Origin: a virus
Taxonomy: Duplodnaviria > Caudoviricetes
Direction: 5' to 3' (one strand)
DNA length: 64,000 nt
IMG/VR virus record: IMGVR_UViG_3300046011_007348
Coordinates: 1 to 64,000 of that record
A program made the position numbers and the translations under genes. The notes beneath the pieces were generated by a model, which did not search any database, was not told where the DNA came from, and saw only the letters and a program-made list of their open reading frames with translations. Below are positions 5,869 to 54,501 of this stretch, piece by piece (within the stretch, counting starts at the first letter, position 1; the number at the start of each line of letters is the position of its first letter).

Positions 5869-5894
5869 AAATATTAAAAGTTCACTGATAAAGT

Positions 5895-6532: not shown

Positions 6533-6592
6533 CGATAAAAAAATTCAGGATTGGCTAAATGCTAATCCTGACGTGTGGGAACAGTTCATTAA
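6149..6592 (+). repeat. 44-bp direct repeat (6149-6192 and 6549-6592)
   Basis: GATTGGCTAAATGCTAATCCTGAYGTGTGGGAACARTTCATYAA, 3 synonymous mismatches, 400 bp apart. Confidence 0.9.
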
Positions 6593-6776
6593 AGAATATC
6601 CAGAATATTCTCACACAACTTTTGATAAAGCTATTTTCTTTACAGAAGAAATGTCGGAAAATAGCGATTATTCAATGGCAACATTTGTCAGATTTGAACC
6701 AAGAATCAAAACATCTGATGGGTGGTTCTTATCTGATTGTTTCTTAGATTTTTGTAAAAGGAGATGGGATGATTAA
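6516..6776 (+). CDS. Hypothetical protein, DWLNANPDVWEQFIK family
   Basis: AGGAG RBS; N-terminus shared with previous gene. Confidence 0.65.
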   Translation: MQFIADDKKIQDWLNANPDVWEQFIKEYPEYSHTTFDKAIFFTEEMSENSDYSMATFVRFEPRIKTSDGWFLSDCFLDFCKRRWDD

Positions 6777-7371
6777 AGTAGATTGTTTTGGCACTGAATT
6801 AGTCGTTGATCTTCTAATGGACAAGAATCAAATGGCAATATTAAATCTTTCTCCATTAGAAGATTATATCTGGGCAAAAATATTTTATGAATTTGGATGG
6901 AATGTGCCAGATCCATCCAACATAGCAAAGTCTTGTTTTGCCTATTCAATGGATAAGAAAGAAAGAAGCTTTGTACTCTTTTTGGAGTACAAAGAGGATT
7001 GCCTTAGGCATGTTTACAGTCAACTACAAAGCAAAATGAAACTCTACTTAGAGTACAATCCAAATGAGTTTAGATGGGATTTACCATACGTTAAAGGAAC
7101 GTATGACTACCATTACTTTAGATTACTGGAAACTCCAGCTAGCATGTTTGTTGATGTAAATTACTACAAAGGCTGGGAGACTCAAACGTGGTTTGAGCAG
7201 CTTTCTGAAATCAACGACAACAAGACGAAAGAGCAATCTTTCAAAGAGGAAAAGGAAAAACTAAAACAGTTTTTCCTCAAACTCGCTTCAGACAAGCTAG
7301 ATATTGACTTGTCTAAATATACTTACTTAGACAACGCAAACACTTTGGTATGGACGACATGTACGCAATAA
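6769..7371 (+). CDS. Hypothetical protein
   Basis: 200-aa ORF, AGGAG RBS, coupled to neighbours. Confidence 0.65.
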   Translation: MIKVDCFGTELVVDLLMDKNQMAILNLSPLEDYIWAKIFYEFGWNVPDPSNIAKSCFAYSMDKKERSFVLFLEYKEDCLRHVYSQLQSKMKLYLEYNPNEFRWDLPYVKGTYDYHYFRLLETPASMFVDVNYYKGWETQTWFEQLSEINDNKTKEQSFKEEKEKLKQFFLKLASDKLDIDLSKYTYLDNANTLVWTTCTQ

Positions 7372-9284: not shown

Positions 9285-10586
9285 ATGGACGTTACAATAA
9301 TAACTTCTCCGGAGTCGGAGAGAGAACTTCTAAGTTATGTGTTAGTGCATGGCTTGGACATAGTTGAGAAGTATGAGATACAGGAAGAAGATTTTTCTGT
9401 GTTGGATTACAAAAAGCTATTTAAAGTATTTAAGACTTTAAATAATCAAGGCAAGCGCATTGACTTGTTGGAAGTCAGCAATTTCCTAACCACAAACTCT
9501 GTCAAGTTAGTGGCAGAGCCAAAAGCATTAATAGCATCTATTCTGGATAGTGCATATTACAATCCAGAGTCAGCAGCATCTATAGTTAAGGACAAATCGC
9601 TCAGGAGGCGAATTATGTCAGCTGCTGAATTCGCAAGGAAAGAGTCCAACAACTTGCTTGTTGAGCCACAGGATTTGTTGGCATCCATGCAAGAGGAGTT
9701 ACTAAAAGTTGAAAGGCAAGTTCATGGGGACAGATATCAGCTGTACTCTGCTAATAAACTTGCTGTAAGCGTGTTTGATTATTTGACTTCAGAGCATCAA
9801 AAATTGCCTAATTTAGGCTGGTATTCACTTGATAATATACTAGAAGGCATTCGTCCGTGCGTGTACCTTGTAGCTGGCGGTACAGGCATGGGGAAAACGT
9901 CTTTTATGTTAGCTATGGCAATGCAATTAATGAAACTGCATGGATTGCCTGCATTGTACTTTACTCCTGAGATGACACAGGAGCAGTTTGCAACGAGAAT
10001 GTTGTCAAACATTACTGGGATAAATTCTAGTGATTTGTTGCAGATTGGGAGAAATGAGCAACATCATAAGTGGGATGCAATTGTTCAAGGCATTGCACAG
10101 TTAGGAGATTTACCATTGTATGTGAACGATAATAGCTCACCTAGCATGGCAATTATTGAGTCAGATATTAGGAAAGTGATAGCTCAGCGTGGTGAGAAGA
10201 TAGCTGTATTTGTGGATTATTTACAGCAATTGCCACCTGTCTCCAAGGACGGTGATTCTGCATCTGAGTTAGGACGACGGATGCAACTACTTGATAATAT
10301 TTCTAAGAAATATCAAGTACCGCTATTTGTTGGTTGTCAGATTAATCGTAGTAACGCTACTACACAGGACAAACGTCCTGATTTGTTTAGTATCCGTGGT
10401 AGTGGAGAAATAGCGGAAAAGGCAGCTGTTATTATTGGATTATTTCGTTCTGCTTATTATAGCAAAGATCCAGGAGACAATAGCTTTGAAGCATTAGTAT
10501 TAAAAAACAGATGGGGAAGGATGGGAGAGACTGCATATTTACGATGTGATTTAGGTACTTCATCTTTCTGGGATGCAACAGTGTAG
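9285..10586 (+). CDS. dnaB: Replicative DNA helicase DnaB-like
   Basis: Walker A GGTGMGKT, VFVDYLQ, QINR, RP..SIRGSGEI, KNRWG. Confidence 0.93.
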   Translation: MDVTIITSPESERELLSYVLVHGLDIVEKYEIQEEDFSVLDYKKLFKVFKTLNNQGKRIDLLEVSNFLTTNSVKLVAEPKALIASILDSAYYNPESAASIVKDKSLRRRIMSAAEFARKESNNLLVEPQDLLASMQEELLKVERQVHGDRYQLYSANKLAVSVFDYLTSEHQKLPNLGWYSLDNILEGIRPCVYLVAGGTGMGKTSFMLAMAMQLMKLHGLPALYFTPEMTQEQFATRMLSNITGINSSDLLQIGRNEQHHKWDAIVQGIAQLGDLPLYVNDNSSPSMAIIESDIRKVIAQRGEKIAVFVDYLQQLPPVSKDGDSASELGRRMQLLDNISKKYQVPLFVGCQINRSNATTQDKRPDLFSIRGSGEIAEKAAVIIGLFRSAYYSKDPGDNSFEALVLKNRWGRMGETAYLRCDLGTSSFWDATV

Positions 10587-14485: not shown

Positions 14486-15757
14486 ATGGTTAATTACGGA
14501 AAAATATTTAGCAAACTTTGGCAATTTTTTAGAGGCTCTAATAATCTAGAAGGCATTAGGCAATCTGTTATTTATCCGCACACTCAAACTAAAAATTATT
14601 TCGATTTACCAGAAACGCCTATACGTCCGGTACACGGTGATTTGAATATATCTTACGAACTTCTAGAGATGTATTATTGGAGTTATGAATACAGGCACTC
14701 CATTGATACTATCGCATCTGATTGCTTCCAGGAAGTGGAAGGACAAGTCAGCAGTTGGTATGTCAATCCTACTTTAAGTGATGGCACAGTTGTTAGTCCG
14801 GAAGTGCTGGAAATAGCCAAAGAGCTATCAGAGTACAGATATGGTAAAGAACTAGTATTAGGTGGTGATTTCTTAATTAGAGCAGCGATAGAAGCGTTAG
14901 CGTTTGGCGACAGTTTCGTTGAATTAGGCATTGGTAAAACAGGAATTGGTAATAATGATTGGGACATTGTTTCTAGTCAGTATTTACCTACTTTCTCTGT
15001 ATTTGTGGAAAAGACTAGCAGTAATCAAACAGTAAGTTATATTCAACGTACAAGAGTCATGCCATCGGAGGATGATATTCAATTCAATCCTGTTAAAATA
15101 CTGCATTTTAAATACAAATCTAGAGGATTGTATGGCAATTCTATTGGATTTCCTTCTATAGAAACATGGCGTAAATTCAAAGAGTGTTCTGTGGCATTAG
15201 AGACAGCAGCGCGAGATGTGGGGATTACTCCATGGTTGCATATTTTACCAGAAGACAAGACGGAACAAGACAGAATAGATTACATGCAGCGTCATGAATC
15301 TATGTCAGCAAGTGGTATTATTACCAATTTGTATTTACTGTCTGGCTCTGATGTCAAGAAAGCTGCTGGAACAAGTGGTGATTCATTAGCTCCTTTAATT
15401 GATTATTGGCTAAAGCTAAGATATCAATGCATTCCTCCTAGAGTGCCTGCCTGGATATTTCCAGGATTAGCAGAATCCACAGGTTCTAGAGATATTCATG
15501 GACAGCCAGCGTTAACTTATAGTCGTCTGATTGGTGAAGTCCGTTCCTTGATTGGAGAGCAAGTTAGATGGGCGATTTGTCTAAAAATGGTATTAAGATA
15601 TGGATACGATTTTTACATTGCTAACAGGCATTTTGATGTCAAATGGCCTAAGTGGGTATTAACTCCTAACTCTGAATACACACAAGTCATGGGTGAGTTT
15701 GCTTCTCCTACTGATATTCCAACAACTACAGAATCTCCGGAGTCATATGGAAACTAA
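14486..15757 (+). CDS. Portal protein
   Basis: Follows TerL; FGDSFVE, ILHFK...LYG.S portal-like motifs; 423 aa. Confidence 0.75.
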   Translation: MVNYGKIFSKLWQFFRGSNNLEGIRQSVIYPHTQTKNYFDLPETPIRPVHGDLNISYELLEMYYWSYEYRHSIDTIASDCFQEVEGQVSSWYVNPTLSDGTVVSPEVLEIAKELSEYRYGKELVLGGDFLIRAAIEALAFGDSFVELGIGKTGIGNNDWDIVSSQYLPTFSVFVEKTSSNQTVSYIQRTRVMPSEDDIQFNPVKILHFKYKSRGLYGNSIGFPSIETWRKFKECSVALETAARDVGITPWLHILPEDKTEQDRIDYMQRHESMSASGIITNLYLLSGSDVKKAAGTSGDSLAPLIDYWLKLRYQCIPPRVPAWIFPGLAESTGSRDIHGQPALTYSRLIGEVRSLIGEQVRWAICLKMVLRYGYDFYIANRHFDVKWPKWVLTPNSEYTQVMGEFASPTDIPTTTESPESYGN

Positions 15758-44474: not shown

Positions 44475-44948
44475 TTAAAAATCTAAAGCAATGAATGAGT
44501 TTATTTTAGCACTTAACTTTAAGCTGTACGTTGTGTAATCCACAATAATAAATGACTCAGCCCAATCAGATGGATTTGTGTTGCTAAAAAATGTTGCCTT
44601 GACTCTTGCATAATAAGTAGTCTTAGGCATATTTGAAAACATGGCAAATGTCTCTATTGTGTTTTGAGCCATTTCCCATGCTCCTGTCAATCCTTTCTTA
44701 ATCTCTACAACATATCCAATTGTCCATGGAGAATTTTGCAAAGAACCATTGATTGTCTGTTGAGGTGGAAGCCAAGAAACATAAATATCAAAAAAGTTTG
44801 CTCCTTCCGTGATTGGAATACCATCAGCTGATAGTTTACCAATTGGATTAGTTGATACTGTAACTTCTCTTGGAACTACATTAACGTTGGGAGCATTAGA
44901 AGACACTCGTTGAGGCAACGAATCAAAAGCCCATTGTACTGGTGTCAT
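44475..44948 (-). CDS. Fibronectin-III domain tail protein (separated C-terminal part of gpJ)
   Basis: VSWLPP..GYVVE..W..YYARVKA..PSDW; ATGA overlap with gpJ stop. Confidence 0.65.
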   Translation of the reverse strand: MTPVQWAFDSLPQRVSSNAPNVNVVPREVTVSTNPIGKLSADGIPITEGANFFDIYVSWLPPQQTINGSLQNSPWTIGYVVEIKKGLTGAWEMAQNTIETFAMFSNMPKTTYYARVKATFFSNTNPSDWAESFIIVDYTTYSLKLSAKINSFIALDF

Positions 44949-46879
44949 ATTGTTGACATACTATCAATAAAACTATATTTAGTACTATCATATTCTGATG
45001 CAGTAATTTCATGCATACCTTCAATCGTTTCTGAAACAGGCACTCTATTTATTACTCGATATTGTTTAGGAACAACAGAATTGCCGGATAATATCCAGTT
45101 AGATTCAGGTGGTGGTGCTGCACTAAAAGCAGAAGTTACTGTGACAACTGAAGTTGTATTAGCAGTGTTTTGTATTGTTTTTTGTTGCCAAGTACCATCA
45201 CTCAAAGTAACACTAATTTGATATGTTTGCCCTACCACTAACGTCACTGGACTATCTAGATTAATTGTGGTTGTAGTAGCTGAAATAATTAATCCTCCAG
45301 CACGCATTTCTAATCGTTCAGAGTCAGATACAGCAATAATATCTCCTGGTTTTATAAAAGCTGCATAAGCTCTAGCTTTAAATGTTACTGTCTCTTGTTC
45401 TAATCTATCAGAAATTAAAGCTGCCACTCCTGCTCGTCTTGCTTGTCCTCTGCTAGTGCATGCAATAGCTTCTAATTCTAATTCTTTAATTCCCCATTTT
45501 TGTATAGCAATTGGATCTTCTACCATCTCAACTGTTTTGCGGTAAAAATCAGCTGGATTTAGCCAACTTACTAATGCTACAGTTTTTTTGGATTTTAGCC
45601 CAACTCTGCTATATATAAAAACCCCATCTTCAACATCTGCTTGCGTAAATTGGTATTTAATAGCATCTGGTTTATCTGCAATAAATGTTATTGTTCCAGC
45701 CTGCCAATAAGCAAATCCTCTAAATATTGATATTAAAGATTCCAGTACTTGATATGCTTCTGTTTTAGATTGTAAGACAATATTACATTGAAATCTTGGC
45801 TCATAAATTGGGCTACCATTTGTGCTATATCCGCTTGGAACTAATTCATTACAGTATTTACTAATTTCGTATAATCCCCATTTATCTATTTGTTTAGTAT
45901 CAATATACTTGCCAAGTCCATATCTAGTATTTGTAATTAAATCATATAAAATCCATGCTGGATCTGAAACAGCTACGTTTGGCGTTTGGAAAACTCCATT
46001 CCAAACACCTTCGTAAAGAATACGTCTATTCAATCCATCTATTATGGCATTACTTGGAACTTGTACTAATCTCCCAAAAACTTCAAATAAGACATTTGGG
46101 ACTGAGCTAAACCCAGATGTGTCAAATGAAAAAGCTGTTAAAGCTGTATTTGGATAATTTAATTTTTTGTTTGTAATTTTTGCGTAAGAAACAAACGACA
46201 TACTGCGTTGATATCCAGTCTTTTCAGTTTCTGCATTATCTAAAGTAAGTTTGATAACTTTAATAGATAAATTACCCAACCCAGTAACTGGAGGAAATCT
46301 AAATCTATAATCAAATTCTGTTGGGCTTGAATAACGCCCAGAAACTACATTGTAATAAGTAAATAATGTTTCATAAGCATTATTTACTTCTCGTTGTATA
46401 ATAATTTGAAATTCTATATTAGTTGTTTCAATATTACCATTATCTGGATTCTGTCTTTGCATTTGAAAAGACAATTTTACTTTAACTTCATCAGGAATAC
46501 CACCTTGAATTTGTTGAGTAACACCAAGATTATTTCCTTCTCCATTCCATTCTACTGCTGCATTTACAGATATTTCGTTTGAAATAGTATCTCCAAATCC
46601 AAATAATTCAATTGGTGGTTGAATTTGAGTTCCTGCACGATAGTCAAATTGAACATTCTTGAAATTATCACTATTATCTTCATTTTTGACTGGAGTTTCA
46701 TCTAGATAAACTCTAGTCAATGGATTTGTCCCAAAACCTTGTATTGGGCCTTCTGAGATTGCTCCTAAAATGTAAGCAATCGAAGTACTTGTCCCTGTCA
46801 CTCTAGCAACATTAGGAGTTCCTCTTCCTCCTTTACCGCCGCCACTTCCTTGGATTTTTTTATGTTTTTTGTGTTTCAT
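44945..46879 (-). CDS. Tail tip / host specificity protein J-like
   Basis: GSGGGKGG, ISEGPIQG, YLDETPV, YPNTAL, SDPAWILYDL.TN.RYGLG, CTSRGQARRAG. Confidence 0.92.
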   Translation of the reverse strand: MKHKKHKKIQGSGGGKGGRGTPNVARVTGTSTSIAYILGAISEGPIQGFGTNPLTRVYLDETPVKNEDNSDNFKNVQFDYRAGTQIQPPIELFGFGDTISNEISVNAAVEWNGEGNNLGVTQQIQGGIPDEVKVKLSFQMQRQNPDNGNIETTNIEFQIIIQREVNNAYETLFTYYNVVSGRYSSPTEFDYRFRFPPVTGLGNLSIKVIKLTLDNAETEKTGYQRSMSFVSYAKITNKKLNYPNTALTAFSFDTSGFSSVPNVLFEVFGRLVQVPSNAIIDGLNRRILYEGVWNGVFQTPNVAVSDPAWILYDLITNTRYGLGKYIDTKQIDKWGLYEISKYCNELVPSGYSTNGSPIYEPRFQCNIVLQSKTEAYQVLESLISIFRGFAYWQAGTITFIADKPDAIKYQFTQADVEDGVFIYSRVGLKSKKTVALVSWLNPADFYRKTVEMVEDPIAIQKWGIKELELEAIACTSRGQARRAGVAALISDRLEQETVTFKARAYAAFIKPGDIIAVSDSERLEMRAGGLIISATTTTINLDSPVTLVVGQTYQISVTLSDGTWQQKTIQNTANTTSVVTVTSAFSAAPPPESNWILSGNSVVPKQYRVINRVPVSETIEGMHEITASEYDSTKYSFIDSMSTI

Positions 46880-47898: not shown

Positions 47899-48226
47899 GA
47901 GTTATCCTATTATTCCTTTGGTTCCAAATTGGGACAGCACAAAGTCAGAGCAATCAAATATTATTGTAACTAAATACCAGCCTAACACAATTGAGGCAAG
48001 ATCATCAAGAACTAAAATCAATACCACAAATGTTACTTTCTCTGTGTCTGTTAATATAACTAATGGAACTGCTGTAGACACATTCTTGAGAGAACGTAAT
48101 GGCAAAGCATTTAGAGTGGAAAATGACACTATGCTTTACTCTTGTACAGAATGGACTATACAAGCATTGGGAGAAGGTATTGATTTATTCTCAGCTACAT
48201 TTGAACAAGTTAGGAGATTTTTATGA
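47897..48226 (+). CDS. Minor tail protein M-like, copy 2
   Basis: VDTFLRERNGKAF..CTEW..FSATFEQV; ATG 47897. Confidence 0.75.
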   Translation: MSYPIIPLVPNWDSTKSEQSNIIVTKYQPNTIEARSSRTKINTTNVTFSVSVNITNGTAVDTFLRERNGKAFRVENDTMLYSCTEWTIQALGEGIDLFSATFEQVRRFL

Positions 48227-48954
48227 TTCCAAATTTATTAAGTTTGAATCCAGATTCATTTATAGAATTATATGAAATATATAAATACAGAGTGGAAGAT
48301 ATAAATAAAGATGAAGCTGCACAAAATCCTAACGTGCCATCAACAATGATTGAAACAATTAGGATTGGTAGTATAGCTATTGATGAAAACACACCATGGG
48401 TTGTCTTTGAAGGCAAAACTTATTATGCAGTTGGATGCCAAGGAGAAGGATTTGATTTAATCGGACGTGGTACTATTCCTACTCCAACATTAACTGTATC
48501 TAACGTTGGTGGTATTTTAACTAAATGGCTAAAAGACAGTAGAGATCCAGCATACAGACTGGAAGGCACACACGTCAAAAGGCGCGTGACTCAAAAAAGA
48601 TTTTTAGATGGACAAGTAGATGCTAATGCTGGGGTAAAAGAACTGCCAATACAAATTTATGTTATTGAACAGCTAGTAGAAGAGAACTATACTAACGCAA
48701 AATTCAGACTTGGATCTGCCTTTGACGTTGAGGGAATAACATTGCCAGCTAGAGTAATGGTGCGTAGCTGCACTTGGGTATATCGTAGTCCAGAATGCAG
48801 TTACGCTAATCCTGCAAAATTTACAATAAATAATGAGCCAACCCAAAATGCAAGTGAAGATTTCTGTGCAAAAACTATTGCAGCTTGTGAAACAAGATTT
48901 GGTGCAGGCAGTATATTACCATTTGGTGGATTCCCAGGATTAAATACTTACTAA
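48223..48954 (+). CDS. Minor tail protein L-like
   Basis: IELYE, PTPTLTVSN, T..RFLD, CTWVYRSPECSY, C.K...C..RF, LPFGGFPG. Confidence 0.92.
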   Translation: MIPNLLSLNPDSFIELYEIYKYRVEDINKDEAAQNPNVPSTMIETIRIGSIAIDENTPWVVFEGKTYYAVGCQGEGFDLIGRGTIPTPTLTVSNVGGILTKWLKDSRDPAYRLEGTHVKRRVTQKRFLDGQVDANAGVKELPIQIYVIEQLVEENYTNAKFRLGSAFDVEGITLPARVMVRSCTWVYRSPECSYANPAKFTINNEPTQNASEDFCAKTIAACETRFGAGSILPFGGFPGLNTY

Positions 48955-49139
48955 ACCTCGGATTCGTTGCGTTTTAATTTCATGTATATCTTTATCTTGT
49001 TCCGTAGTTCTAGCTCCTGTATTAATCCACTAACAACTAATCTATTCACAATTGAACTGATAGATTCTTCTGTTTCTTGATGGATTGATTGTAAAACAGC
49101 AAAAACATCAGTTGATACAGACACGGAAACTTGTTTCAT
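48951..49139 (-). CDS. Ribbon-helix-helix (CopG-like) regulator
   Basis: KQVSVSVSTDVFAVLQSI..ESISSIVNRLV; GAGGT RBS. Confidence 0.7.
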   Translation of the reverse strand: MKQVSVSVSTDVFAVLQSIHQETEESISSIVNRLVVSGLIQELELRNKIKIYMKLKRNESEV

Positions 49140-49169
49140 ATTACCTCTCATTGCTTACTAAATTAACTA

Positions 49170-49218
49170 TACATTATGTATAATGTACATAGCAAAAAAG
49201 TCCGACTTTTGTCGGACT
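49170..49218. promoter_or_regulatory. Two palindromic operators between divergent RHH and HTH genes
   Basis: TACATTA-N4-TAATGTA (49170-49187, contains TATAAT) and AGTCCGAC-TTTT-GTCGGACT (49199-49218). Confidence 0.6.
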
Positions 49219-49234
49219 AATGGAGGTAACATAC

Positions 49235-49516
49235 ATGGAAATTATAACTAAATTTAAGCCTATCCCAGACAAATATTCCTCTTTGGATAGACTCATGTGT
49301 CCACTAGAATTTAAACAAAAGTGGAAATTAACGATAGACGAGATGTCTTGGGTGCTGCAAATTAGTCCGGATACTTTTAAATCTTGGGCTGTACCTGAGA
49401 CAAGTGCCAAAAGCAGAAAAACACCTTTAATTGCTTTTGTTGCTTGCAAAGCATTAGACACTCTTTGGGAGCAGCAAGGTATGCCCAACGTTAGAGTTTT
49501 GATGAATTTACATTAA
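49235..49516 (+). CDS. Cro/XRE-like HTH protein
   Basis: PLEFKQKWKLTIDEMSWVLQISPDTFKSW..RKTP; GGAGGT RBS. Confidence 0.65.
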   Translation: MEIITKFKPIPDKYSSLDRLMCPLEFKQKWKLTIDEMSWVLQISPDTFKSWAVPETSAKSRKTPLIAFVACKALDTLWEQQGMPNVRVLMNLH

Positions 49517-49539
49517 AAACTAATTTAATTACAAAAACT

Positions 49540-49605
49540 GTGTACTTTGTCCACGCTATTTGTGTACAGAGTACACTTGCTTTATATATACTTTATTCTT
49601 ATAGT
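49540..49605 (+). promoter_or_regulatory. Promoter of the FtsK-module operon with tandem upstream operators
   Basis: GTGTAC-N3-GT(C/A)CAC at 49540 and 49562; TTGCTT-N17-TATAGT at 49577-49605. Confidence 0.7.
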
Positions 49606-49618
49606 TTAAGCATAGTTC

Positions 49619-49670
49619 CAGAAACATTCCAGAAATAGTTCGGAAGTAAGACGGAAGTAAGGAGGAAAAA
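49619..49670 (-). repeat. 11-bp-period array of 8-mers (left array)
   Basis: CAGAAACA 49619, CAGAAATA 49630, CGGAAGTA 49641, CGGAAGTA 49652 (= TAnTTCYG on the minus strand). Confidence 0.8.
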
Positions 49671-50044
49671 TGGATACAGACATCTTGTATCCTGTTAAAC
49701 ACAAAAGACAGTATAGGAGGAAAACTCAGTCATCGGTGGTGCTATCTGATTGCACCAGAGAAGCAATTGCACTTGAGCTGGAAGTATCTACTAGAACTGT
49801 TCAAGAGTTAATCAGAATTGCATCAACGTATATTGATTTGTTTAATGAGTATACAGATGACAATTACAGATTAAATGGTTTGCCGATAGATTCAAAACAA
49901 CAAGTTGAAGTGTTAAGGCAAATTAGACAAGTTAGACAAAAGTACAGACACGTCAAAGACAAGTCCTTTATTAAGAAGGAGTATCAAAAAATCAACCAAA
50001 GAGTTAAGGAGGAACAAAATGGCAGTCAAGAAAGCAACAGTTAA
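49670..50044 (+). CDS. HTH DNA-binding protein
   Basis: TREAIALELEVSTRTVQELI HTH; GGAGG RBS. Confidence 0.7.
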   Translation: MDTDILYPVKHKRQYRRKTQSSVVLSDCTREAIALELEVSTRTVQELIRIASTYIDLFNEYTDDNYRLNGLPIDSKQQVEVLRQIRQVRQKYRHVKDKSFIKKEYQKINQRVKEEQNGSQESNS

Positions 50045-50621
50045 AGATGTCGCAGCATCAATTGGCTGGACAGTCAAAGAGTTGGTAACAAGACTAAATC
50101 AAGAGCCTGGCATTAATGTCGCTCCTAGTGAAGCTTTTCCGACTTTGTCAGAGGACAGCGAGTTGTGGAAGCAAATCCAAGCTGCTGCTCAAAAAAGTCA
50201 AGTTAGTCAAGAGCCAGTTAAGGAGTCTGTCGCTATTGGAGAAGGCGAGATTAGTCCATACCAAGCGCCAATAGAAACAGTTGAGACATTAGCTGAAGCT
50301 CAGAAAGTATTAGCAGAAGAGACAACTGGCATTCAAGTAGAACAAGCTCGTATACTTGGCTCTGTTGCTGGCATTAATGAAACCATTACATATTTTACAG
50401 CACGCCAACAAGTCACTGAAGCATTGCTTAGACATCATATTGAGCAACAAACTAATCTCACAGATAGTTTAATCGGAAAAGCCAAAGAATCTTCATTTGA
50501 ACTGCACAAGCAGACAAGGAACAGCTTGTCAGGAGCCTATGAATTAAAAAAAACTCTAGAAGAGCAAAAAGCCAGGTTGAAAAACATAGTGACGCAAATG
50601 ACACAATCATTTGGGATGTAA
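50019..50621 (+). CDS. N-terminal HTH-like plus coiled-coil protein; probable -1 frameshift at 50546
   Basis: TVKDVAASIGWTVKELV start; Q/E/A-rich coiled coil; GGAGG RBS. Confidence 0.65.
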   Translation: MAVKKATVKDVAASIGWTVKELVTRLNQEPGINVAPSEAFPTLSEDSELWKQIQAAAQKSQVSQEPVKESVAIGEGEISPYQAPIETVETLAEAQKVLAEETTGIQVEQARILGSVAGINETITYFTARQQVTEALLRHHIEQQTNLTDSLIGKAKESSFELHKQTRNSLSGAYELKKTLEEQKARLKNIVTQMTQSFGM

Positions 50622-50917
50622 TCAGACTGGTTAATGAATCGACTTTAGCGCAAATAGAGTTAGCAATATCGATTGGGCAAATTGAGATGCTTCAGCAAAT
50701 TCTAAAAAGAAGAAAGGAGTTAATTAAAATCATGATTGACACATTGTTAGGAGTATCAAGTGTAGCAGGAGTAGCGACTATAGCAAGTTATTTTGCTGTT
50801 GCCACTGCTGTAGTCAATCCAGTTGTATTAACGGCATTAGGTGCAGCTGCTTTTTTAAGTGGTGTCTATATGCAATTTTCATCATCTAATTCAATTCAAA
50901 TTACCCGGAGAAAATAA
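50543..50917 (+). CDS. Membrane-anchor ORF (ATG 50687/50732), open in the -1 frame from the A8 slippery site
   Basis: Hydrophobic hairpin LLGVSSVAGVATIASYFAVATAVVNPVVLTALGAAAFLSGVY; no stop 50543-50914. Confidence 0.6.
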   Translation: MKKNSRRAKSQVEKHSDANDTIIWDVIRLVNESTLAQIELAISIGQIEMLQQILKRRKELIKIMIDTLLGVSSVAGVATIASYFAVATAVVNPVVLTALGAAAFLSGVYMQFSSSNSIQITRRK

Positions 50918-50918
50918 C

Positions 50919-51176
50919 ATGTTTAACGGAAAAGAACAAATCACAAGTCGTGTAGTAACTCAGATTACTAATACTAAGTTGGAAAATGGTGGTACTTTGC
51001 ATGACAAAATAGAAACGCATTATTCACCAATTAATTCACACGTTGACAACGCGCTGTCCGGTGTCCTTGTGCCTTTATCGATTGCTGCTGGCTTGTGTGC
51101 ATTTGTTGCAGTATCTAACTGGACAGCACCATCACAGTGTCAAAGTCAGGCACAAGTTCAATCTGCTCATAAGTAA
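50919..51176 (+). CDS. Small single-TM membrane protein
   Basis: ALSGVLVPLSIAAGLCAFVAV; GGAG RBS. Confidence 0.6.
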   Translation: MFNGKEQITSRVVTQITNTKLENGGTLHDKIETHYSPINSHVDNALSGVLVPLSIAAGLCAFVAVSNWTAPSQCQSQAQVQSAHK

Positions 51177-51184
51177 GGTGACAC

Positions 51185-51595
51185 ATGCTTAGCACATTGA
51201 AAGGATTTTTCTCTAACACAGGAGACAAATTAGAAAACATTTTGTATGGAGTCAATAAGCCAATTTTCCCATACGTTTACGAAGTAAGTGAGGAGGAAGT
51301 GAAGCAAATTACTGAAGACGCAACTGCGACAGAACAAATGGCTGCAAGAGTAAAAACATATCTAAAAGCAGTGGAAAGAAAAACCAAAAGTGTTGAAGAA
51401 ATGTTTAATGCAAACAATGCTTTTGAAAAGTCAATGATGGCAACTGCTGAAAGATTAAATGACAAGAACAAGATGATGTATGCCGCTCGAAAGGAATACA
51501 AAAAACAATTGCCTTTTAGCGTCAAAAGGTACTTGCACCCAGCAAGGATTGTAGGCGATTCTACAGCAAACATTATCAAAGGAATTTGTCAATGA
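51185..51595 (+). CDS. Coiled-coil hypothetical protein
   Basis: AAGGT RBS; helical heptads. Confidence 0.6.
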   Translation: MLSTLKGFFSNTGDKLENILYGVNKPIFPYVYEVSEEEVKQITEDATATEQMAARVKTYLKAVERKTKSVEEMFNANNAFEKSMMATAERLNDKNKMMYAARKEYKKQLPFSVKRYLHPARIVGDSTANIIKGICQ

Positions 51596-51849
51596 TGGAA
51601 GACGAAAGAATGACAGATATTCAGAATTCAGCAAGGTGGATGTTAGGAGCCAATCAAATACTAATCGTCATAGCTTTTGGTGCTTTTACTGGCTATTTAT
51701 CCCGCTATTATCCACCTTCTAGTTCTGTCACGATAACAGTAATTACGTTTGCATGTATTTGTGGATTTCTGTTTCCAGCTACAAGAAAAATACTACTTTT
51801 AGTTGGAATATTTTATGGACTAGGACTTGTCCTTAGTCATTTGAATTAA
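51586..51849 (+). CDS. Small multi-TM membrane protein
   Basis: Three hydrophobic segments in 87 aa. Confidence 0.65.
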   Translation: MSMMEDERMTDIQNSARWMLGANQILIVIAFGAFTGYLSRYYPPSSSVTITVITFACICGFLFPATRKILLLVGIFYGLGLVLSHLN

Positions 51850-51913
51850 TTGTTTGGGAGGTGCCAAGTGGATACCATTACTTGCCTCCTTATTCATTTT
51901 AAAGGGAGGTATT

Positions 51914-53746
51914 ATGTTCTTTTTTAAATCAAAAGCAAAGCCTAAAGTTGTACACAAGAAATTTGAATTAAGTCCAGTTGTGTTGTACAACTTAATTGGA
52001 GTAACAATTTTAGTTTTTACACCTGCAATGATTAGCTGGAAAAATGCTAAAGAGTTGCGAGTAGCAAGTAGTGCCGTAGCAGTAATGTACTCTATGGTAT
52101 TGTTAAAATATGCCCAAAACAATATTGATGAAGCTGATAGACTTGCCATAGAAAAAGAGCATTACTTTACGGCTTATGCTAATGCTTCTGGGGATGTTTA
52201 TTTAAATTCAGAACAACAAATCAAAAATGCTTTGCTGCCTCCTGCTTCTAGTCCAGAAGTAGACTTAGAAGTTCTGCATCCATTAGAAGATACACTCTTA
52301 AAATTAGGCATCAAAGCAACAATAGATGGAGAGCCAATAGATTCTCCTACGTTTACTAGATTCAAGATAGTGCCTGACAAAGGAGTGCATTATCAAAAAT
52401 TTAATAATTTGTCAGATACTCTAAAAGTTCATATGGGGTATGATACACCTCCACTGATTTCATGTCAAAGCAAGTATGTCTCGATTGATGTAGCAAAGAC
52501 AGACTCAGAAAGACGTTTTTGTGAATATCAAGAATACTCAAACAATTTGAATTATTCTCTTGAGAAGTTCACTGTTCCTATTGGAGTTGACATCAACAAC
52601 AATCTTGTTGAAGTGTCGTTATCAGATGCTAACTCCCCTCATTTATTGATTGCTGGAACTACTGGTAGTGGCAAGAGTGGTTGGTTAGTAGCTTGCATAA
52701 CTAGTTTGCTGGATAGATTTCCTGCTGATAAATGCAGACTATTTTTGATTGATCCAAAGCTAGTTGAGTTTGATATTTTTGAAAAATACAAACAAGTTGA
52801 GTTGGTAACAAAACAAGAAGACGCTCTTACTTTGTTGCACAATTTACTTAACACAATGGAAAGTAGATATGAGCTATTCAAAAAACATAAAGCACGGGAT
52901 TTATCTCAATACAATAGAGAAAATCCTAAGAATATTATGCCACGAGTTGTGGTGTGTTTTGATGAATACGCAACATTCATGGTAGGAGACAGTAAAGATG
53001 ATTTTAACGATTGTTTATCTCAACTAGCACAGAGAGCGAGAAGTGCTGGAATACACCTTGTATTAGCTACTCAGCGTCCTGATGCGACAATTGTCACGCC
53101 TAGGATACGCTCTAACATACCTGCTCGCATTGCATTAAAGACTATCCAACACCAGGATAGTGCTATAATTTTAGGAGTAGAAGATGGCACTTTAAACTCC
53201 AAGAATTTGTGTGGTAAAGGTGACTTAATTGCTAATTACAATGGCAAGCTAGAAAGACTGCAAGGATTGTATGTCAAAGATGTAGATTACACGTTATCAA
53301 ATACTGAAATCAAGGAGTTAACAAATGTAGATTCACCTTACCAAAATGACGAAATTGCCTATAGCTATAGTGAAGCACAAGATAGCGAGAAAGGTGAAGT
53401 GTATACTCACTTCTCCAAAACAGCTCAAAAGGATAGTGTACAAGCATTTGAGTCTAAAAACAAATTTGTAACTAGCTTAGTGAAGCTAAAAATCGCTGCC
53501 TTAATGTCTGGGGATATAGACGAAACTGAGCCGTTATTTGATGATAGTTATGGGCTGTCATCAGAGCAGCAGCTTTTAGTGTTGAAGTTTTTTCTAGACA
53601 AAAACATAGGCAAAGAACGCACAATTAAAGCTCTATGGGGAACAAGTTCTGGTGGTAAAAATCATCATAAATATCAAAAATCAAGTGCTATTTATGATGA
53701 CATGATATCTAAAATAAAAGAACTTGAATACTTAACACAAGTGTAA
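51914..53746 (+). CDS. FtsK/SpoIIIE (TraB-like) membrane-anchored DNA translocase
   Basis: Two N-terminal TM segments, alpha domain (DSPTFTRFKIVP), PHLLIAGTTGSGKS, LIDPK, MESRY, FDEYA, RSAGIHLVLATQRP, L.GKGD; helical C-terminal domain; GGGAGGT RBS. Confidence 0.92.
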   Translation: MFFFKSKAKPKVVHKKFELSPVVLYNLIGVTILVFTPAMISWKNAKELRVASSAVAVMYSMVLLKYAQNNIDEADRLAIEKEHYFTAYANASGDVYLNSEQQIKNALLPPASSPEVDLEVLHPLEDTLLKLGIKATIDGEPIDSPTFTRFKIVPDKGVHYQKFNNLSDTLKVHMGYDTPPLISCQSKYVSIDVAKTDSERRFCEYQEYSNNLNYSLEKFTVPIGVDINNNLVEVSLSDANSPHLLIAGTTGSGKSGWLVACITSLLDRFPADKCRLFLIDPKLVEFDIFEKYKQVELVTKQEDALTLLHNLLNTMESRYELFKKHKARDLSQYNRENPKNIMPRVVVCFDEYATFMVGDSKDDFNDCLSQLAQRARSAGIHLVLATQRPDATIVTPRIRSNIPARIALKTIQHQDSAIILGVEDGTLNSKNLCGKGDLIANYNGKLERLQGLYVKDVDYTLSNTEIKELTNVDSPYQNDEIAYSYSEAQDSEKGEVYTHFSKTAQKDSVQAFESKNKFVTSLVKLKIAALMSGDIDETEPLFDDSYGLSSEQQLLVLKFFLDKNIGKERTIKALWGTSSGGKNHHKYQKSSAIYDDMISKIKELEYLTQV

Positions 53747-53761
53747 TATTAAATATTGTGT

Positions 53762-53824
53762 TAGTTCCGTTTTACTTCTGTTGTAGTTCTGCTTTACTGC
53801 TGAAGTATTACCGGAATTTAACCG
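53762..53824 (+). repeat. 11-bp-period array of 8-mers (right array)
   Basis: TAGTTCCG 53762, TACTTCTG 53773, TAGTTCTG 53784, TACTGCTG 53795, TATTACCG 53806, TTTAACCG 53817. Confidence 0.8.
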
Positions 53825-53922
53825 GTATTTTGGTGTTAACACATTGCCAATACTGTAAGTAGCTGGGAACAGCAAACAGTCTTAATAGTTCACTCACGTC
53901 AAACAAATCCAGTAAGCAAATT

Positions 53923-54501
53923 ATGATTAAAAACGATAAGTGGATTCTAGAAGAATGTAAAAAAGGGATGATTCAACCATATGAAACACAACTTGTTAAA
54001 TACAACAATGGCAAGCGAATTAGTTATGGATTATCTTCTTATGGTTATGATATTAGTTTGTCTGACACAGAATTCTGGGTGTTTAGAAATGATAACAATA
54101 CTGTTGTCAACCCCAAGAATTTTATTAGAACAAATCTAGAATCTGTGCCTTTGCAAAAAGATGAATATGGAGAGTTTTTTGTAATTCCAGCCCACTCTTA
54201 TGGATTGGGAGTTGCACTAGAGAAAATTACAATGCCTGACAATGTAACTGCTGTTTGTGTTGGTAAAAGCACTTATGCCAGAGTTGGATTGATTGCTAAC
54301 ATCACTCCTGTTGAAGCTGGATGGAGTGGACATTTAACATTAGAATTTAGCAATTCTTCCGGTGCTGACTGCCGAATTTATGCAAATGAGGGAATAGCAC
54401 AATTACTGTTTTTTGAAGGTGAGACTTGCTCTACAAGCTATAGTCAAAGACAAGGCAAGTATCAAGATCAGCCTGAGAAAGTGGTATTCGCTAAAGTCTA
54501 A
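53923..54501 (+). CDS. dcd: dCTP deaminase
   Basis: ISYGLSSYGYD, GKSTYARVG, TPVEAGWSGHLTLE, YANEGIAQLLF, GKYQDQ. Confidence 0.95.
   Translation: MIKNDKWILEECKKGMIQPYETQLVKYNNGKRISYGLSSYGYDISLSDTEFWVFRNDNNTVVNPKNFIRTNLESVPLQKDEYGEFFVIPAHSYGLGVALEKITMPDNVTAVCVGKSTYARVGLIANITPVEAGWSGHLTLEFSNSSGADCRIYANEGIAQLLFFEGETCSTSYSQRQGKYQDQPEKVVFAKV

Follow-up and report, generated by a model that had tools for sequence, protein, structure and literature searches.

The described system that the locus studied here may parallel in function is TraB/Spd/clt of Streptomyces, a precedent for sequence-marked transfer of double-stranded DNA between cells. Two other kinds of known system are relevant as well. The native role of FtsK is the clearance of DNA at the septum, and centromeres flank or precede par operons, as do parC1/parC2 of pB171 and parC of R1.

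A first-pass annotation of phage DNA from lake water metagenomes had proposed that a TraB/Spd/clt-like module spreads the phage DNA from cell to cell. We followed up this proposal computationally in a 64-kb stretch of that DNA (hereafter the window), which belongs to a 72-kb record that is about 52% complete. We describe a conserved operon, shared by cyanophages and plasmids of filamentous cyanobacteria, which combines a predicted membrane-anchored DNA pump with putative DNA-binding proteins. Our literature search found no paper describing it. Judged from its sequence, the operon may serve to transport the phage's own DNA, or to keep it in place, at membranes or at the septa between cells.

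Results

The self-contained unit of the first-pass annotation, at 48951-53835, is real. Its nine genes, with dcd downstream, have the content and order first described, and the neighbours are conserved together with the ATPase gene (Table 1). The front of the unit had been read as a divergent RHH/HTH pair. The arrangement of the genes held, while the RHH match of the 66-aa protein is sub-threshold (Pfam RHH_7, E 0.002, 18.9 bits, under the cut-off of 27), as are the HTH_11 (13.5 bits) and IF2_N (15.3 bits) matches. Place and strand of the 66-aa gene are kept in nine of ten distant viral loci, the remaining one (L012) being cut, and RHH-like genes occupy the equivalent place in a Nostoc-type locus (L209) and in L112. 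A terminator-like hairpin was called on the minus strand of the divergent intergenic region. We could not uphold the operator-controlled sigma70 promoter. The promoter scan gave 14 promoter-like sites versus 17.0 ± 3.8 in shuffled sequences, which is not above chance, and the originally proposed TTGCTT-N17-TATAGT was not called.

Table 1. Features of the operon and its borders, in window positions.
Feature	Position	Strand	Remarks
66-aa RHH-like protein	48951..49151	-	ORF; divergent from operon
Divergent intergenic region with palindromes	49152..49219	.	Inverted repeats I3, I18; includes hairpin 49199-49218
98-aa HTH-type protein	49220..49516	+	ORF; Cro/C1-type via annotation of CrV homologue
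Palindrome GTGTACAGAGTACAC, operon leader	49562..49576	.	Candidate operator only
Upstream array, four ~11-12 bp units	49616..49662	+	Ends at RBS of 124-aa gene; core CNGAA at 49619, 49630, 49641, 49652
124-aa protein, predicted MerR-like winged HTH and long helix	49670..50044	+	ORF; AF2 model
200-aa protein, small N-terminal HTH-like domain and helical coiled-coil-like body	50019..50621	+	ORF
Slippery heptamer A AAA AAA	50546..50552	+	Candidate -1 frameshift, 200-aa protein into 2-TM 76-aa protein
76-aa membrane protein	50687..50917	+	ORF; 2 predicted TM segments (hydropathy)
85-aa single-TM protein	50919..51176	+	ORF; 1 TM segment (hydropathy)
136-aa helical protein	51185..51595	+	ORF
87-aa membrane protein	51586..51849	+	ORF; 2 TM by hydropathy threshold, possibly 3
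610-aa FtsK/SpoIIIE-family ATPase	51914..53746	+	ORF; open already from TTG 51854
Downstream array, inverted relative to upstream	53763..53793	+	TTCNG at 53765, 53776, 53787
Terminator-like hairpin TACCGG-N7-CCGGTA and T run	53809..53835	+	Operon end; hairpin 53809-53827
dcd	53923-54501		Pfam DCD 7.6e-25; next gene after unit

Homologues of eight of the nine proteins were found in the Cylindrospermopsis phage CrV-01T, in the same order. They include gp045 (66-aa protein, E 2e-6), gp046 (98-aa, annotated Cro/C1-type, 2e-8), gp047 (124-aa), gp048 (200-aa), gp049 (76-aa, 5e-12), gp051 (136-aa, 2e-13) and gp052 (87-aa, 7e-18); gp050 is the counterpart of the 85-aa protein by position only (E 0.34). 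The order is also kept in all ten distant IMG/VR loci, as far as each extends, and in six of six longer metagenome loci, and the operon always lies directly after tail gene L. All genes but one are homologous and collinear in three diverged phage lineages, only about 40-50% identical, which include the Cylindrospermopsis phages CrV-01T and Cr-LKS4. By this collinearity, the operon is inherited as a block.

According to its homologues, the module is not phage-specific and occurs on plasmids and cellular contigs as well. Its relatives come from phages of filamentous Nostocales and from plasmids or contigs of Nostoc, Tolypothrix, Aulosira, Calothrix, Microchaete, Fischerella and Roholtiella; contigs of Microcoleus, Tychonema and Oscillatoria carry an analogous module. 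The enrichment in filamentous taxa and the conservation of the ATPase neighbours, both expected under the transfer proposal, were therefore seen. As Nostocales and Microcoleaceae, the two clades to which the module is restricted, are related, common descent may explain this pattern instead of a requirement for filaments.

On the Nostocales plasmids and contigs, the front half of the operon recurs together with the bracketing repeats. The last gene encodes an FtsK-like ATPase once, in Roholtiella, and elsewhere an unrelated membrane P-loop protein, as in L209 and a Tolypothrix plasmid. The Roholtiella contig (L020) carries homologues of the 98-, 124- and 200-aa proteins, three TM ORFs and the ATPase gene, and is flanked by cellular genes, without phage genes. 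In Microcoleus and Tychonema, plasmid-like contigs of ~17 kb carry an RHH gene beside HTH/helical, helical, 3-TM and 2-TM ATPase genes, with 11-bp repeats in the operon leader; the C-terminal domain of this ATPase type is common with that of the window ATPase (hhalign 97.2%, E 3.8e-11). One member of the analogous module bears the source name 'type IV secretory system conjugative DNA transfer family protein'. The analogous operon of L112 adjoins a separate ParA/ParB pair, a Rep-like helicase and a tyrosine recombinase.

The HTH-type proteins of the operon number two or three. The 98-aa protein aligned with a 70-aa ORF of Roholtiella (hhalign 77.7%), and its family HMM matched in L209 (4.5e-5). 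The 124-aa protein is predicted to bind DNA through a MerR-like winged HTH. Its AF2 model (pLDDT 73.8) gave as top structural rows MerR-family regulators, the RacA DNA-binding domain and pSK1 Par; their Z-scores of 5.1-5.9 are under the tool's reliability level. Homologues of the protein occur in Roholtiella (hhalign 96.5%) and Nostoc. For the 200-aa protein, a weak IF2_N match (E 0.017) is accompanied by homologues in Roholtiella (hhalign 97.1%) and L209 (7.2e-47). Its family matched 11 of 72,556 plasmids, all from Nostocales genera, and its atlas neighbours are commonest in Cyanobacteriota. No family was assigned to the 136-aa protein, for which all Pfam matches were sub-threshold and the atlas search was uninformative.

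Hydropathy agreed with the three small membrane proteins of the first-pass annotation, giving two, one and two TM segments in the 76-, 85- and 87-aa proteins. The 76-aa family HMM matched in L209 (9e-5). The 85-aa protein has a hypervariable TM/C-terminal patch at about 51040-51190 and is 74-87% identical among strains with neighbouring proteins 97-100% identical. The 200-aa reading frame may continue into the 76-aa frame by a -1 frameshift. The -1 frame is open from 50543 to 50917, without ATG, GTG or TTG ahead of 50687, and the frame relation is identical in four of four phage loci. L014 and L001 have an in-frame A AAA AAG, and L009 has no canonical heptamer. RNA-library contigs bridged 50450-50844 in three runs.

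The last gene encodes an FtsK/SpoIIIE ATPase, as first read (Pfam PF01580, 1.9e-33, 116 bits versus a cut-off of 24). Five of five orthologues keep Walker A (GTTGSGKS), Walker B (FDEY) and TQRPD without change, and by these motifs the motor is an intact member of the FtsK family. Among solved structures the FtsK motor 2iuu matches best (8.9e-41); the coupling protein 6o1w reaches 2e-18 and the EssC-type 4nh0 7e-22. In the tree the ATPase clade is monophyletic (SH-aLRT 99) and sister to PD-(D/E)XK-nuclease-FtsK fusions, some of which adjoin other P-loop NTPases; pIJ101 Tra lies on a separate, very long branch. On these comparisons, bona fide FtsK and the cyanobacterial fusions are the closest relatives of the motor. 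The predicted architecture consists of an N-terminal membrane hairpin, an alpha/beta motor and a C-terminal HTH-like domain of ~95 aa. Of the two TM segments first described, one reached the hydropathy threshold and the second, weaker one was seen by eye only. The C-terminal helical domain was borne out: it is conserved and modelled at pLDDT 76.7, with HTH DNA-binding domains as top structural rows (Z 5-6).

The first-pass annotation had placed 8-mer arrays at both ends. Phased repeats of ~11 bp are present at both, but the portion read as ACCGGAATTTA x2 downstream is the terminator-like hairpin followed by its T run. Only three chains of at least three TTCNG/CNGAA words at 10-12 bp spacing occur in the window, the third at 15249 inside an ORF, compared with a mean of 0.035 chains in 200 block shuffles. 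As this word was picked after the arrays had been seen, the independent support is the recurrence of the arrays in relatives, where, as anticipated, both positions are kept with the gene order. Upstream, L020 has 7.7 and L209 2.7 copies of CGGAACTCAAT, and L009 and CrV-type loci have degenerate units. The downstream counterparts are AGTTCCGATTG x2.7 in L020, GTCGAGTTCCG x3.2 in L209, immediately 3′ of the ATPase gene, and five units in L009. Inverted bracketing was observed in the window, L020 and L209. The two arrays of L209 have the core CGGAAYT in common, and the remainder of the unit differs. Since the repeats bracket the operon even with a different ATPase, the conserved HTH proteins are more likely to read them than the ATPase.

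A search of the 72-kb record with the profiles Relaxase PF03432, VirB4 PF03135, Phage_integrase PF00589 and ParA-type PF13614, the only ones tried, gave no match, in agreement with the reported lack of relaxase and VirB4. The claim of a TraB-like ATPase with Spd/Kor-like accessories was not supported. The ATPase scored 61 bits against the TraB model NF041214, which has a cut-off of 800, and 35 profile comparisons of the accessory proteins with Spd, KilB and KorA reached a best probability of 1.6%.

Discussion

Our leading interpretation, to which we tentatively give a probability of about 35%, is a cis-acting, sequence-marked translocation of double-stranded DNA across septa. The operon would be autoregulated and act on the DNA that carries it. 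The 124-aa MerR-like and 200-aa HTH/helical proteins would bind the phased repeats at the operon ends, the latter possibly also being membrane-anchored through the frameshift. Together with the three small membrane proteins, they would deliver the marked DNA to a membrane-anchored hexameric FtsK-type pump, with its C-terminal HTH-like domain aiding DNA engagement. The pump would push double-stranded DNA, of the phage or of a plasmid, across the membrane or septum from one filament cell to its neighbour, in a conjugation-like spread that requires neither relaxase nor type IV secretion system. The analysis shows the gene content, the ATPase family, the repeats and their joint conservation in phages and filamentous-cyanobacterial plasmids; we infer which protein binds the repeats, any contacts between proteins, and in which direction and to what place the DNA moves. 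From the original transfer proposal this retains the conserved unit, the relatives in filamentous taxa and the repeats, and gives up TraB kinship, Spd homology and repeats read by the ATPase. Several points count against it. The repeats persist when the ATPase family changes and may serve the HTH proteins simply as operators or centromeres, the motor is by sequence nearest to FtsK and neither to TraB nor to conjugative coupling proteins, and the proposal gives no account of how double-stranded DNA enters the recipient cell.

Nearly as likely as transfer, if doubtful in itself, is segregation or anchoring, which would ensure that no cell of a growing filament loses the replicating phage genome or plasmid. 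The HTH proteins and repeats would form a centromere-like complex, and a membrane-anchored FtsK-type motor at the division septum would clear or pump copies of the element into the two daughter cells, or tether them to the membrane. This would suit a motor closest to true FtsK, arrays in the leader and behind the operon that resemble centromeres at par operons, and carriers that are large, presumably low-copy Nostocales plasmids. The weak top structural rows of the 124-aa model, RacA (Z 5.9) and centromere-bound pSK1 Par (Z 5.3), also point this way, although at unreliable Z-scores. However, partition would not call for three extra small membrane proteins, and it is already supplied in L112, where a canonical ParA/ParB pair adjoins the analogous module. 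A maintained prophage is unsupported, as neither the 72-kb record nor the annotations of the complete CrV-01T genome yielded an integrase, ParA or plasmid Rep. According to PMC9303873, CrV has been suggested to be obligately lytic, and thus maintenance as a plasmid-prophage is not an obvious need.

Exclusion or defence, in which the translocase and its helpers would block or expel superinfecting phages and competing plasmids and the repeats would be only autoregulatory, is unlikely. PADLOC defence-protein models with FtsK-like domains matched the ATPase (SspH 6.2e-49, mad8 1.1e-22), but only over the common ATPase domain. The nuclease-fusion sister clade, an AIPR abortive-infection gene ~4 kb downstream in L209 and the variability of the 85-aa protein would agree with defence, as arms-race genes are often hypervariable. 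Accessory defence islands, however, are usually not fixed core blocks, whereas this operon is vertically inherited at one place in three phage lineages, and an operator would not require inverted arrays that are conserved at either end across plasmids and phages alike.

It is quite unlikely that the arrays act in RNA by pairing the 5′ and 3′ ends of the operon mRNA, controlling translation or stability, a role limited to the arrays and compatible with any of the protein functions considered above. Both arrays lie within the likely transcript (leader; stop codon-to-terminator gap), with the terminator-like hairpin 3′ of the downstream one, although the promoter position was not established by our scan. 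Predicted duplex energies are -36.7 (window), -71.9 (L020), -51.7 (L209) and -26.1 kcal/mol (L009) versus shuffle means of -16 to -26, values reached in 0, 0, 0 and 2 of 300 shuffles each, but any inverted DNA repeat yields such energies, which do not separate RNA from DNA function. The restriction of the common L209 sequence to the core fits protein recognition better than pairing, and the strict ~11 bp period, one helical turn, suits DNA binding. Very unlikely, finally, is a genome-entry helper, an early-made translocase pulling the remaining long genome into the infected cell: such a helper would fit a membrane-anchored double-stranded DNA motor and a phage whose genome reaches ~100 kb or more and whose tape measure is very long, and two-step entry is known from T5 and phi29, but the module also occurs on plasmids and cellular contigs without phage genes and lies mid-genome in CrV-01T (40-45 kb of 104 kb).

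If the operon does transfer DNA across septa, its likeness to TraB/Spd/clt would be a functional analogy, and we propose an independent origin from a cyanobacterial accessory FtsK lineage. Whereas the Streptomyces clt is read by TraB, the repeats of the phage operon are more likely read by its HTH proteins.

Genomic setting and gene content of the module

The record is 72 kb long and about 52% complete by CheckV, and the window covers its first 64 kb. The module is the stretch from the L-like tail gene to the nearby dCTP deaminase gene (dcd). It consists of a 66-aa ORF on the minus strand and, on the plus strand, eight ORFs of 98, 124, 200, 76, 85, 136, 87 and 610 aa, the last of which encodes the ATPase. 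Near-identical DNA was absent from the phage collection. Fifteen lake-water metagenome runs contained at least half of the sampled words of the same DNA, and four of these 15 are possibly its source. In every annotated record examined, all module proteins except the ATPase are annotated as hypothetical.

Positions in the window of the module, its repeat arrays and neighbouring features
Feature	Position	Remark
CNGAA chain	15249-15275	inside a 423-aa ORF, 14486-15757
J-like tail gene	44945-46879	lambda-like tail genes surround the module
L-like tail gene	48223-48954	lambda-like
66-aa gene	48951-49151	minus strand
98-aa gene	49220-49516	plus strand
Upstream array	49616-49662	CNGAA units
124-aa gene	49670-50044	plus strand
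200-aa gene	50019-50621	plus strand
Open -1 frame	50543-50917	runs into the 76-aa gene
Candidate -1 frameshift site	50546-50552	A AAA AAA, in frame
76-aa gene	50687-50917	plus strand
85-aa gene	50919-51176	plus strand
Variable patch	51040-51190	TM segment and tail of the 85-aa protein
136-aa gene	51185-51595	plus strand
87-aa gene	51586-51849	plus strand
ATPase gene, 610 aa	51914-53746	plus strand
Downstream array	53763-53793	inverted TTCNG units
Tape measure gene, 2929 aa	from 55189	

The first-pass annotation had described three small membrane proteins, and the 76-, 85- and 87-aa proteins indeed contain two, one and two predicted membrane segments, respectively. For the 66-, 124- and 200-aa proteins, RHH, HTH and IF2_N came up as Pfam matches, all of them below threshold. 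The AF2 model of the 124-aa protein (pLDDT 73.8) is similar to winged HTH proteins of the MerR type that have a long helix at the C-terminus, RacA and pSK1 Par among them. Of its 26 top structural rows, 11 are DNA-binding domains of MerR-type proteins, RacA or Par, all with Z values of 4.8–5.9 that lie below the reliability level of the tool; no Pfam MerR match was found. Atlas neighbours of the 136-aa protein were uninformative. The proposed operator-controlled sigma-70 promoter was not supported, as promoter-like sites were no commoner than in shuffled sequences and the suggested hexamers were not called.

Contigs from RNA libraries (two metatranscriptome studies and one uncertain run) cover parts of positions 49647–53452 and bridge the junction of the 200- and 76-aa genes. 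Since these are contigs and DNA carry-over is possible, this does not prove transcription; likewise, that no cover was seen over 48900–49583 proves nothing.

Two features of the coding sequence were observed besides. At the 200-aa/76-aa junction an in-frame A AAA AAA heptamer, a candidate -1 frameshift site, lies 3 nt past the point where the -1 frame opens, and this frame reaches the gene of the two-TM 76-aa protein with no start codon before the annotated one. The frame relation is kept in all four phage loci compared: two of them, of the CrV type, carry A AAA AAG, and the locus L009, from a phage lineage of about 50% identity, has no canonical heptamer. The residues just ahead of the annotated ATG of the 76-aa gene look conserved between the window and L009. 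Judged from sequence, the candidate frameshift would yield a DNA-binding protein that carries a membrane anchor. The second feature is the variable patch of about 150 nt in the gene for the 85-aa membrane protein, whose flanking genes are 97–100% identical among strains. Here the TM segment and the tail have two alleles each, combined in different ways, a pattern suggestive of recombination or diversifying selection.

The module is conserved in a cyanophage lineage

A tblastn search of 50,697 phage records gave FtsK-like matches in 375. Query cover reached 80% or more in only two of these, which are 40% identical to the window protein: Cylindrospermopsis raciborskii virus CrV-01T and Cylindrospermopsis phage Cr-LKS4. 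The unit had been described as self-contained, and this is borne out by its neighbourhood: the genes following the ‘tail tip protein L’ gene in both phages agree with those of the window in size, strand and order. Eight of the nine window proteins match their positional counterparts with E values from 2e-6 to 1e-119, the exception being the 85-aa protein (E 0.34). Scans of IMG/VR and metagenomes added a further lineage of about 50% identity (L009–L013, L128) and more CrV-like loci (L014–L018, L126, L127), in which the gene order is that of the window as far as the contigs extend. Among 1.84 billion representative proteins, 43,584 match the ATPase profile at E ≤ 0.001, and only four of the best 150 do so from end to end, so the full-length form of the ATPase is rare.

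According to PMC9303873, an obligately lytic life style has been suggested for CrV; Cr-LKS4-6 are described in PMC10811720. No integrase, ParA, relaxase or VirB4 is present in the complete annotation of CrV-01T, and the tyrosine integrase profile PF00589 had no match in the 72-kb record of the window. We also observed that the right end of CrV-01T (in its 72–104 kb) contains a long inverted duplication around a CRISPR array, in which dCTP deaminase, lipase and Erf-like genes and about 20 small genes occur twice in mirror order.

The ATPase is an FtsK/SpoIIIE motor with a C-terminal domain of its own family

The 610-aa protein is a member of the FtsK/SpoIIIE family (Pfam PF01580, 116.2 bits against a cut-off of 24, E 1.9e-33; PHROG 1358, 7.1e-72). 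Its nearest solved structures are FtsK motors (2iuu, 8.9e-41); EssC-type chains (7e-22) and the pCW3-type coupling protein 6o1w (2e-18) match far more weakly. Invariant in all five orthologues are G248, T250, G251, G253, K254, D350, E351 and T386–D390, which represent Walker A, Walker B and the TQRPD motif. The N-terminus holds a hydrophobic segment, and the anchor comprises only one or two TM segments. Identity with the chromosomal FtsK equivalog (PRK10263) was rejected on score (NF007615, 131 bits against a cut-off of 1566), and the gamma domain PF09397 is absent among the Pfam matches at E ≤ 0.1.

The last ~95 residues form a helical domain that is conserved separately and constitutes a family of its own. 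Its AF2 model (pLDDT 76.7) gave no Foldseek row against the PDB at E ≤ 0.001. The best VIA-align rows are nearly all HTH DNA-binding domains (LsrR/SorC, LuxR-type, small terminase, sigma region 4, KorB, ScpB), with Z values of 5–6 and rmsd of 1.4–2.8 over about 48 residues, a level that the tool rates as possibly only a common arrangement. These weak rows hint at an HTH-like fold in the modelled domain. The same domain is also found in a protein of 281 aa (P0241), joined to T5orf172 and MUG113 (GIY-YIG-like) nuclease-type domains; with 155 bits this protein outscores every ATPase for the domain. The fusion fits a DNA-binding role.

In a quick maximum-likelihood tree (LG+G4) of 47 motor domains, 11 from our loci and 36 chosen from the 120 matches listed, the six module ATPases group together in a single clade (SH-aLRT 99), in which the protein from Roholtiella is placed outside the phages. 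Their sisters, with support of 97, are cyanobacterial PD-(D/E)XK-FtsK fusions together with the FtsK of pCC7120beta. Gamma-bearing FtsK and the proteins of Bacillus and Mycobacterium phages fall elsewhere, and so does pIJ101 Tra, whose branch is very long; because of long branches the exact places of pIJ101 Tra, pCC7120beta and the Bacillus phage proteins are unsure. The fusions of the sister clade include P0004–P0020 and one at 4897–6963 of a Pseudanabaena plasmid (L119). Some additionally carry a 3′-5′ exonuclease domain, and one adjoins a ‘P-loop NTPase fold protein’. The fusions are possibly a defence system.

Related modules reside on plasmids and cellular contigs

On a 25.7-kb Roholtiella contig (L020), the 98-, 124- and 200-aa proteins all have homologues (hhalign 78, 96.5 and 97.1%, respectively). 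They are accompanied by three ORFs for membrane proteins and by an FtsK-like ATPase with 37% identity, counting the C-terminal domain. The neighbours are two-partner-secretion, CHAT, kinase and HNH genes, and no phage genes are present. The 200-aa family profile was found in 3 of 401 sampled cyanobacterial genomes and in 11 of 72,556 plasmids (Nostoc 4, Tolypothrix 2, Aulosira 2, and one each from Microchaete, Calothrix and Fischerella). Around the proteins of a Nostoc-type locus (L209), clusters at 90% identity comprise 119 and 65 members, and all named members are Nostoc or Desmonostoc.

L209 and a Tolypothrix plasmid share the order of a minus-strand RHH-like gene followed by genes for proteins of 69, ~100–116 and ~190 aa, a small TM protein, a 1-TM protein, a 4-TM protein and a last protein of 626–638 aa with a membrane segment and a P-loop-like motif. 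This last protein has no detectable homology to either ATPase family, with probabilities of 0.2 and 0.4% for the 638-aa Nostoc-type form against the two profiles. Hence the front half and the repeats are the constant part of the module and the ATPase is exchangeable. Another plasmid, the 20.7-kb plasmid8 of Fischerella sp. NIES-4106 (L210), is typed as non-mobilisable. Besides a 200-aa protein homologue (5.7e-11) and a HigB/HigA-like pair, it encodes proteins of 1216 and 703 aa, the latter with two TM segments at its N-terminus, and has a series of very small ORFs. On this gene content the plasmid may represent a minimal form of carrier, with a third variant of the ATPase.

A more distant analogue was detected with the C-terminal-domain profile, which matched 11 of the 401 genomes at E ≤ 0.01, four of them at E ≤ 6e-7. 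Three of these four best genomes contribute plasmid-like contigs of ~17 kb that carry a Rep-like helicase protein (927–1101 aa), RHH, HTH/helical, helical and 3-TM genes, and a two-TM P-loop ATPase of 511–585 aa ending in the C-terminal domain of the module. One of them, a Microcoleus/Tychonema-type contig (L112), additionally encodes ParA, a ParB-like protein and a tyrosine recombinase. The profile of this Microcoleus-type ATPase aligns with the window family from Walker A to the C-terminus (hhalign 97.2%, E 3.8e-11); its sequence profile and that of the C-terminal domain found nothing below E 0.07 among PDB chains. The relatives have a weak TrwB_AAD_bind match (E 0.0028), and one is annotated at source as a T4SS conjugative DNA transfer family protein. 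Among the accessory proteins, only the RHH protein showed any relation to the phage families, at 49.6% probability. Named members come from Microcoleus, Tychonema, an Oscillatoria nigro-viridis plasmid and ‘filamentous cyanobacterium Phorm 46’, and one is a MAG labelled Sericytochromatia.

Inverted repeat arrays bracket the operon

Phased arrays had been reported at both ends of the module. They are present, with four units upstream and three downstream, once a terminator-like hairpin 3′ of the downstream array, which had been counted in, is set aside. The upstream units are ~11–12 bp long and extend into the ribosome binding site (RBS) of the 124-aa gene; the downstream units follow the ATPase stop codon with an exact 11-bp period and in the opposite orientation. 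Chains of at least three TTCNG/CNGAA words spaced by 10–12 bp occur three times in the whole window, against a mean of 0.035 in shuffled sequences. Since this word was defined after the arrays had been seen, the real test is their recurrence in relatives.

In the Roholtiella contig, 7.7 perfect copies of CGGAACTCAAT lie directly before the 124-aa homologue, matching the position in the window, and 2.7 inverted copies lie behind the ATPase gene. In the Nostoc-type locus L209 the identical unit CGGAACTCAAT occurs 2.7 times upstream, and 3.2 inverted copies follow the last gene directly. L009 shows the core TTCCG/TTCCGGAA in three units upstream and five downstream. The units of CrV-type loci are degenerate, with AAGACGGAAGTA common to them and the window. 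The strict chain test found no array at the operon ends of L009 and the CrV-type loci, where only degenerate units are recognized by eye; a chain of 12-bp period in the CrV-type loci, ~2 kb downstream and inside a coding region, was left out of the count. Microcoleus and Tychonema operons carry three 11-bp units similar to AATCGATTCC in the equivalent leader. The persistence of the arrays beside a non-homologous ATPase argues for a reader other than the ATPase.

Further repeats were observed outside these positions. The third chain of the window consists of three CNGAA words with a period of ~11 bp and contains AAGACGGAA, as does the upstream array; on its sequence, it could be a third binding site or chance. 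In L209, positions 10155–10582 between the small TM gene and the next module gene hold 2.5 copies of a 169-bp unit packed with TGTTTCA/TGAAACA words at a period of ~13 bp, which may be a second cis site or an origin. If both were transcribed, the array regions 49605–49669 and 53747–53810 would pair as RNA, close to the RBS of the 124-aa gene, with a predicted energy of -36.7 kcal/mol that none of 300 shuffles reached.

Possible function of the module

Any explanation has to account for a membrane-tied dsDNA pump, several small membrane proteins, two or three small DNA binders and bracketing cis repeats. The carriers are plasmids and a lytic-looking phage lineage, all known or named hosts are filamentous, and one analogous plasmid has a separate ParAB. 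The reading we prefer, with a probability of roughly one in three, is that the module marks its own DNA and carries it through a membrane; the likeliest such barrier is the septum that separates the cells of a filament.

Segregation or anchoring at division is the main rival, possible in our view but on the unlikely side. Iterated centromeres with small DNA-binding adaptors are found in partition systems such as R1 parC/ParR, pB171 par2 and pSK1 Par. The module resembles these systems and Bacillus subtilis RacA in its phased iterons in the leader and behind the operon, in likely autoregulation and, by weak structural rows, in a small RHH or MerR-like adaptor with a helical tail. It differs from them in that the NTPase is a membrane-anchored FtsK-type pump and not ParA, ParM or TubZ, in its several membrane proteins, and in the separate ParA/ParB of L112; the ParA-type profile PF13614 had no match in the 72-kb record. 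Exclusion or defence comes next after segregation; we consider it improbable. An RNA-level role of the repeats is quite improbable too, and could act alongside any of the other readings. That the module helps DNA to enter the cell is very unlikely, because plasmids carry it.

Transfer across the septum has a bolder form. A tailed phage would spread its genome from cell to neighbour along the filament without virions, using its own repeat-marked FtsK-type pump and small membrane proteins. The same machine on plasmids of Nostocales and Oscillatoriales would then be an undescribed conjugation or spreading system, free of relaxase and T4SS and evolved independently of Streptomyces TraB. As a whole this is speculative and rather unlikely. 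Spreading of phage DNA by Spd-like proteins is an idea voiced for actinophages in PMC4447253. No paper was found on Cylindrospermopsis cyanophages and FtsK, and a text search found the term ‘FtsK’ absent from PMC9303873, PMC12481020, PMC6293099 and PMC10811720. The module was likewise not found in abstracts and listings of the literature on TraB/FtsK conjugation in cyanobacteria, on FtsK-like proteins of phages and spreading, and on the spread of cyanophage infection along filaments.

Movement of DNA between cells by the module would, if it occurs, be without precedent outside Actinobacteria as conjugation-like transfer of dsDNA, and a phage genome would for the first time be known to pass through a bacterial filament in the absence of particles. 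Modelling of infection dynamics, bloom collapse and gene flow in bloom-forming Nostocales (Raphidiopsis/Cylindrospermopsis, Aphanizomenon, Nostoc) would change. If the module is a segregation device instead, it would be a partition system driven by an FtsK-type pump, likewise undescribed. Either way, a name and a testable hypothesis are gained for a set of ‘hypothetical proteins’ that is frequent on Nostoc-type plasmids and belongs to the core of a cyanophage lineage. As this lineage has cultured members, CrV-01T and Cr-LKS4, experiments are feasible now.

Comparison with known systems

By its sequence, the module would fall among the FtsK-type, sequence-directed DNA translocation systems of mobile elements, a known kind, as a member of putative function. 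The FtsK-like or VirD4-like coupling proteins of conjugative elements (TcpA of pCW3 and T4CPs) share the N-terminal two-TM anchor and the hexameric P-loop ATPase. However, the match to 6o1w is far weaker than that to FtsK (2e-18 versus 9e-41), and the reported lack of relaxase and VirB4 genes in the window extends to the whole 72-kb record, ~52% complete, in which PF03432 and PF03135 had no match while positive controls matched. Other phage FtsK-like translocases, in Bacillus Bastillevirinae and in Mycobacterium Omegavirus (cluster J), likewise have a phage-borne FtsK/SpoIIIE domain, but they match only the motor (53–61% query cover), lack the C-terminal domain and the module neighbours, and lie elsewhere in the tree. 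We found no description of their function.

Chromosomal FtsK/SpoIIIE is alike: it provides the closest solved motor, has both the alpha and the beta domain, is anchored in the membrane and carries a domain for reading DNA C-terminal to the motor. Its action is directed by short oriented words, the KOPS and SRS 8-mers. In contrast, the module ATPase has no gamma domain by profile, is anchored by one or two TM segments and forms a clade apart from gamma-bearing FtsK. The words of the module are clustered at the operon ends and not spread across the replicon, with a single other chain in 64 kb (at 15249).

The first-pass annotation had likened the module to TraB/Spd/clt of Streptomyces plasmids. 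Several features of that system (pIJ101, pSVH1), as described in PMC4447253 and seen in the pIJ101 map, are indeed shared. In both, one FtsK-family ATPase is associated with the membrane and has a DNA-binding domain at its C-terminus (HTH-like by model here), and the operon encodes a number of small membrane proteins of poor conservation. A repressor gene is divergent, direct repeats of short length lie by the ATPase gene, relaxase and T4SS are absent, and the hosts are multicellular filaments. The differences are in gene order (the ATPase is last in the module and first in pIJ101), in the two inverted arrays that bracket the whole operon and are kept where the ATPase family differs, and in the carrier, which in the window is a tailed phage. 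Kinship by descent is contradicted by the TraB family model NF041214 (60.6 and 61.2 bits against a cut-off of 800) and by the tree, where pIJ101 Tra stands outside the module clade on a branch of ~3 changes per site; the two ATPases share 32% identity over 225 aa. Nor do the accessory proteins resemble pIJ101 SpdA, SpdB, Orf66, KilB or KorA: the best probability in 35 hhalign pairs (seven module families, leaving out the 85-aa protein, by five pIJ101 proteins) was 1.6%. As Spd proteins are diverse (PMC4447253), the accessory proteins may nevertheless be analogous to Spd. Taken together, the TraB score, the identity to pIJ101 Tra and the accessory comparison place the module outside the TraB/Spd family and indicate that any likeness is functional and convergent.
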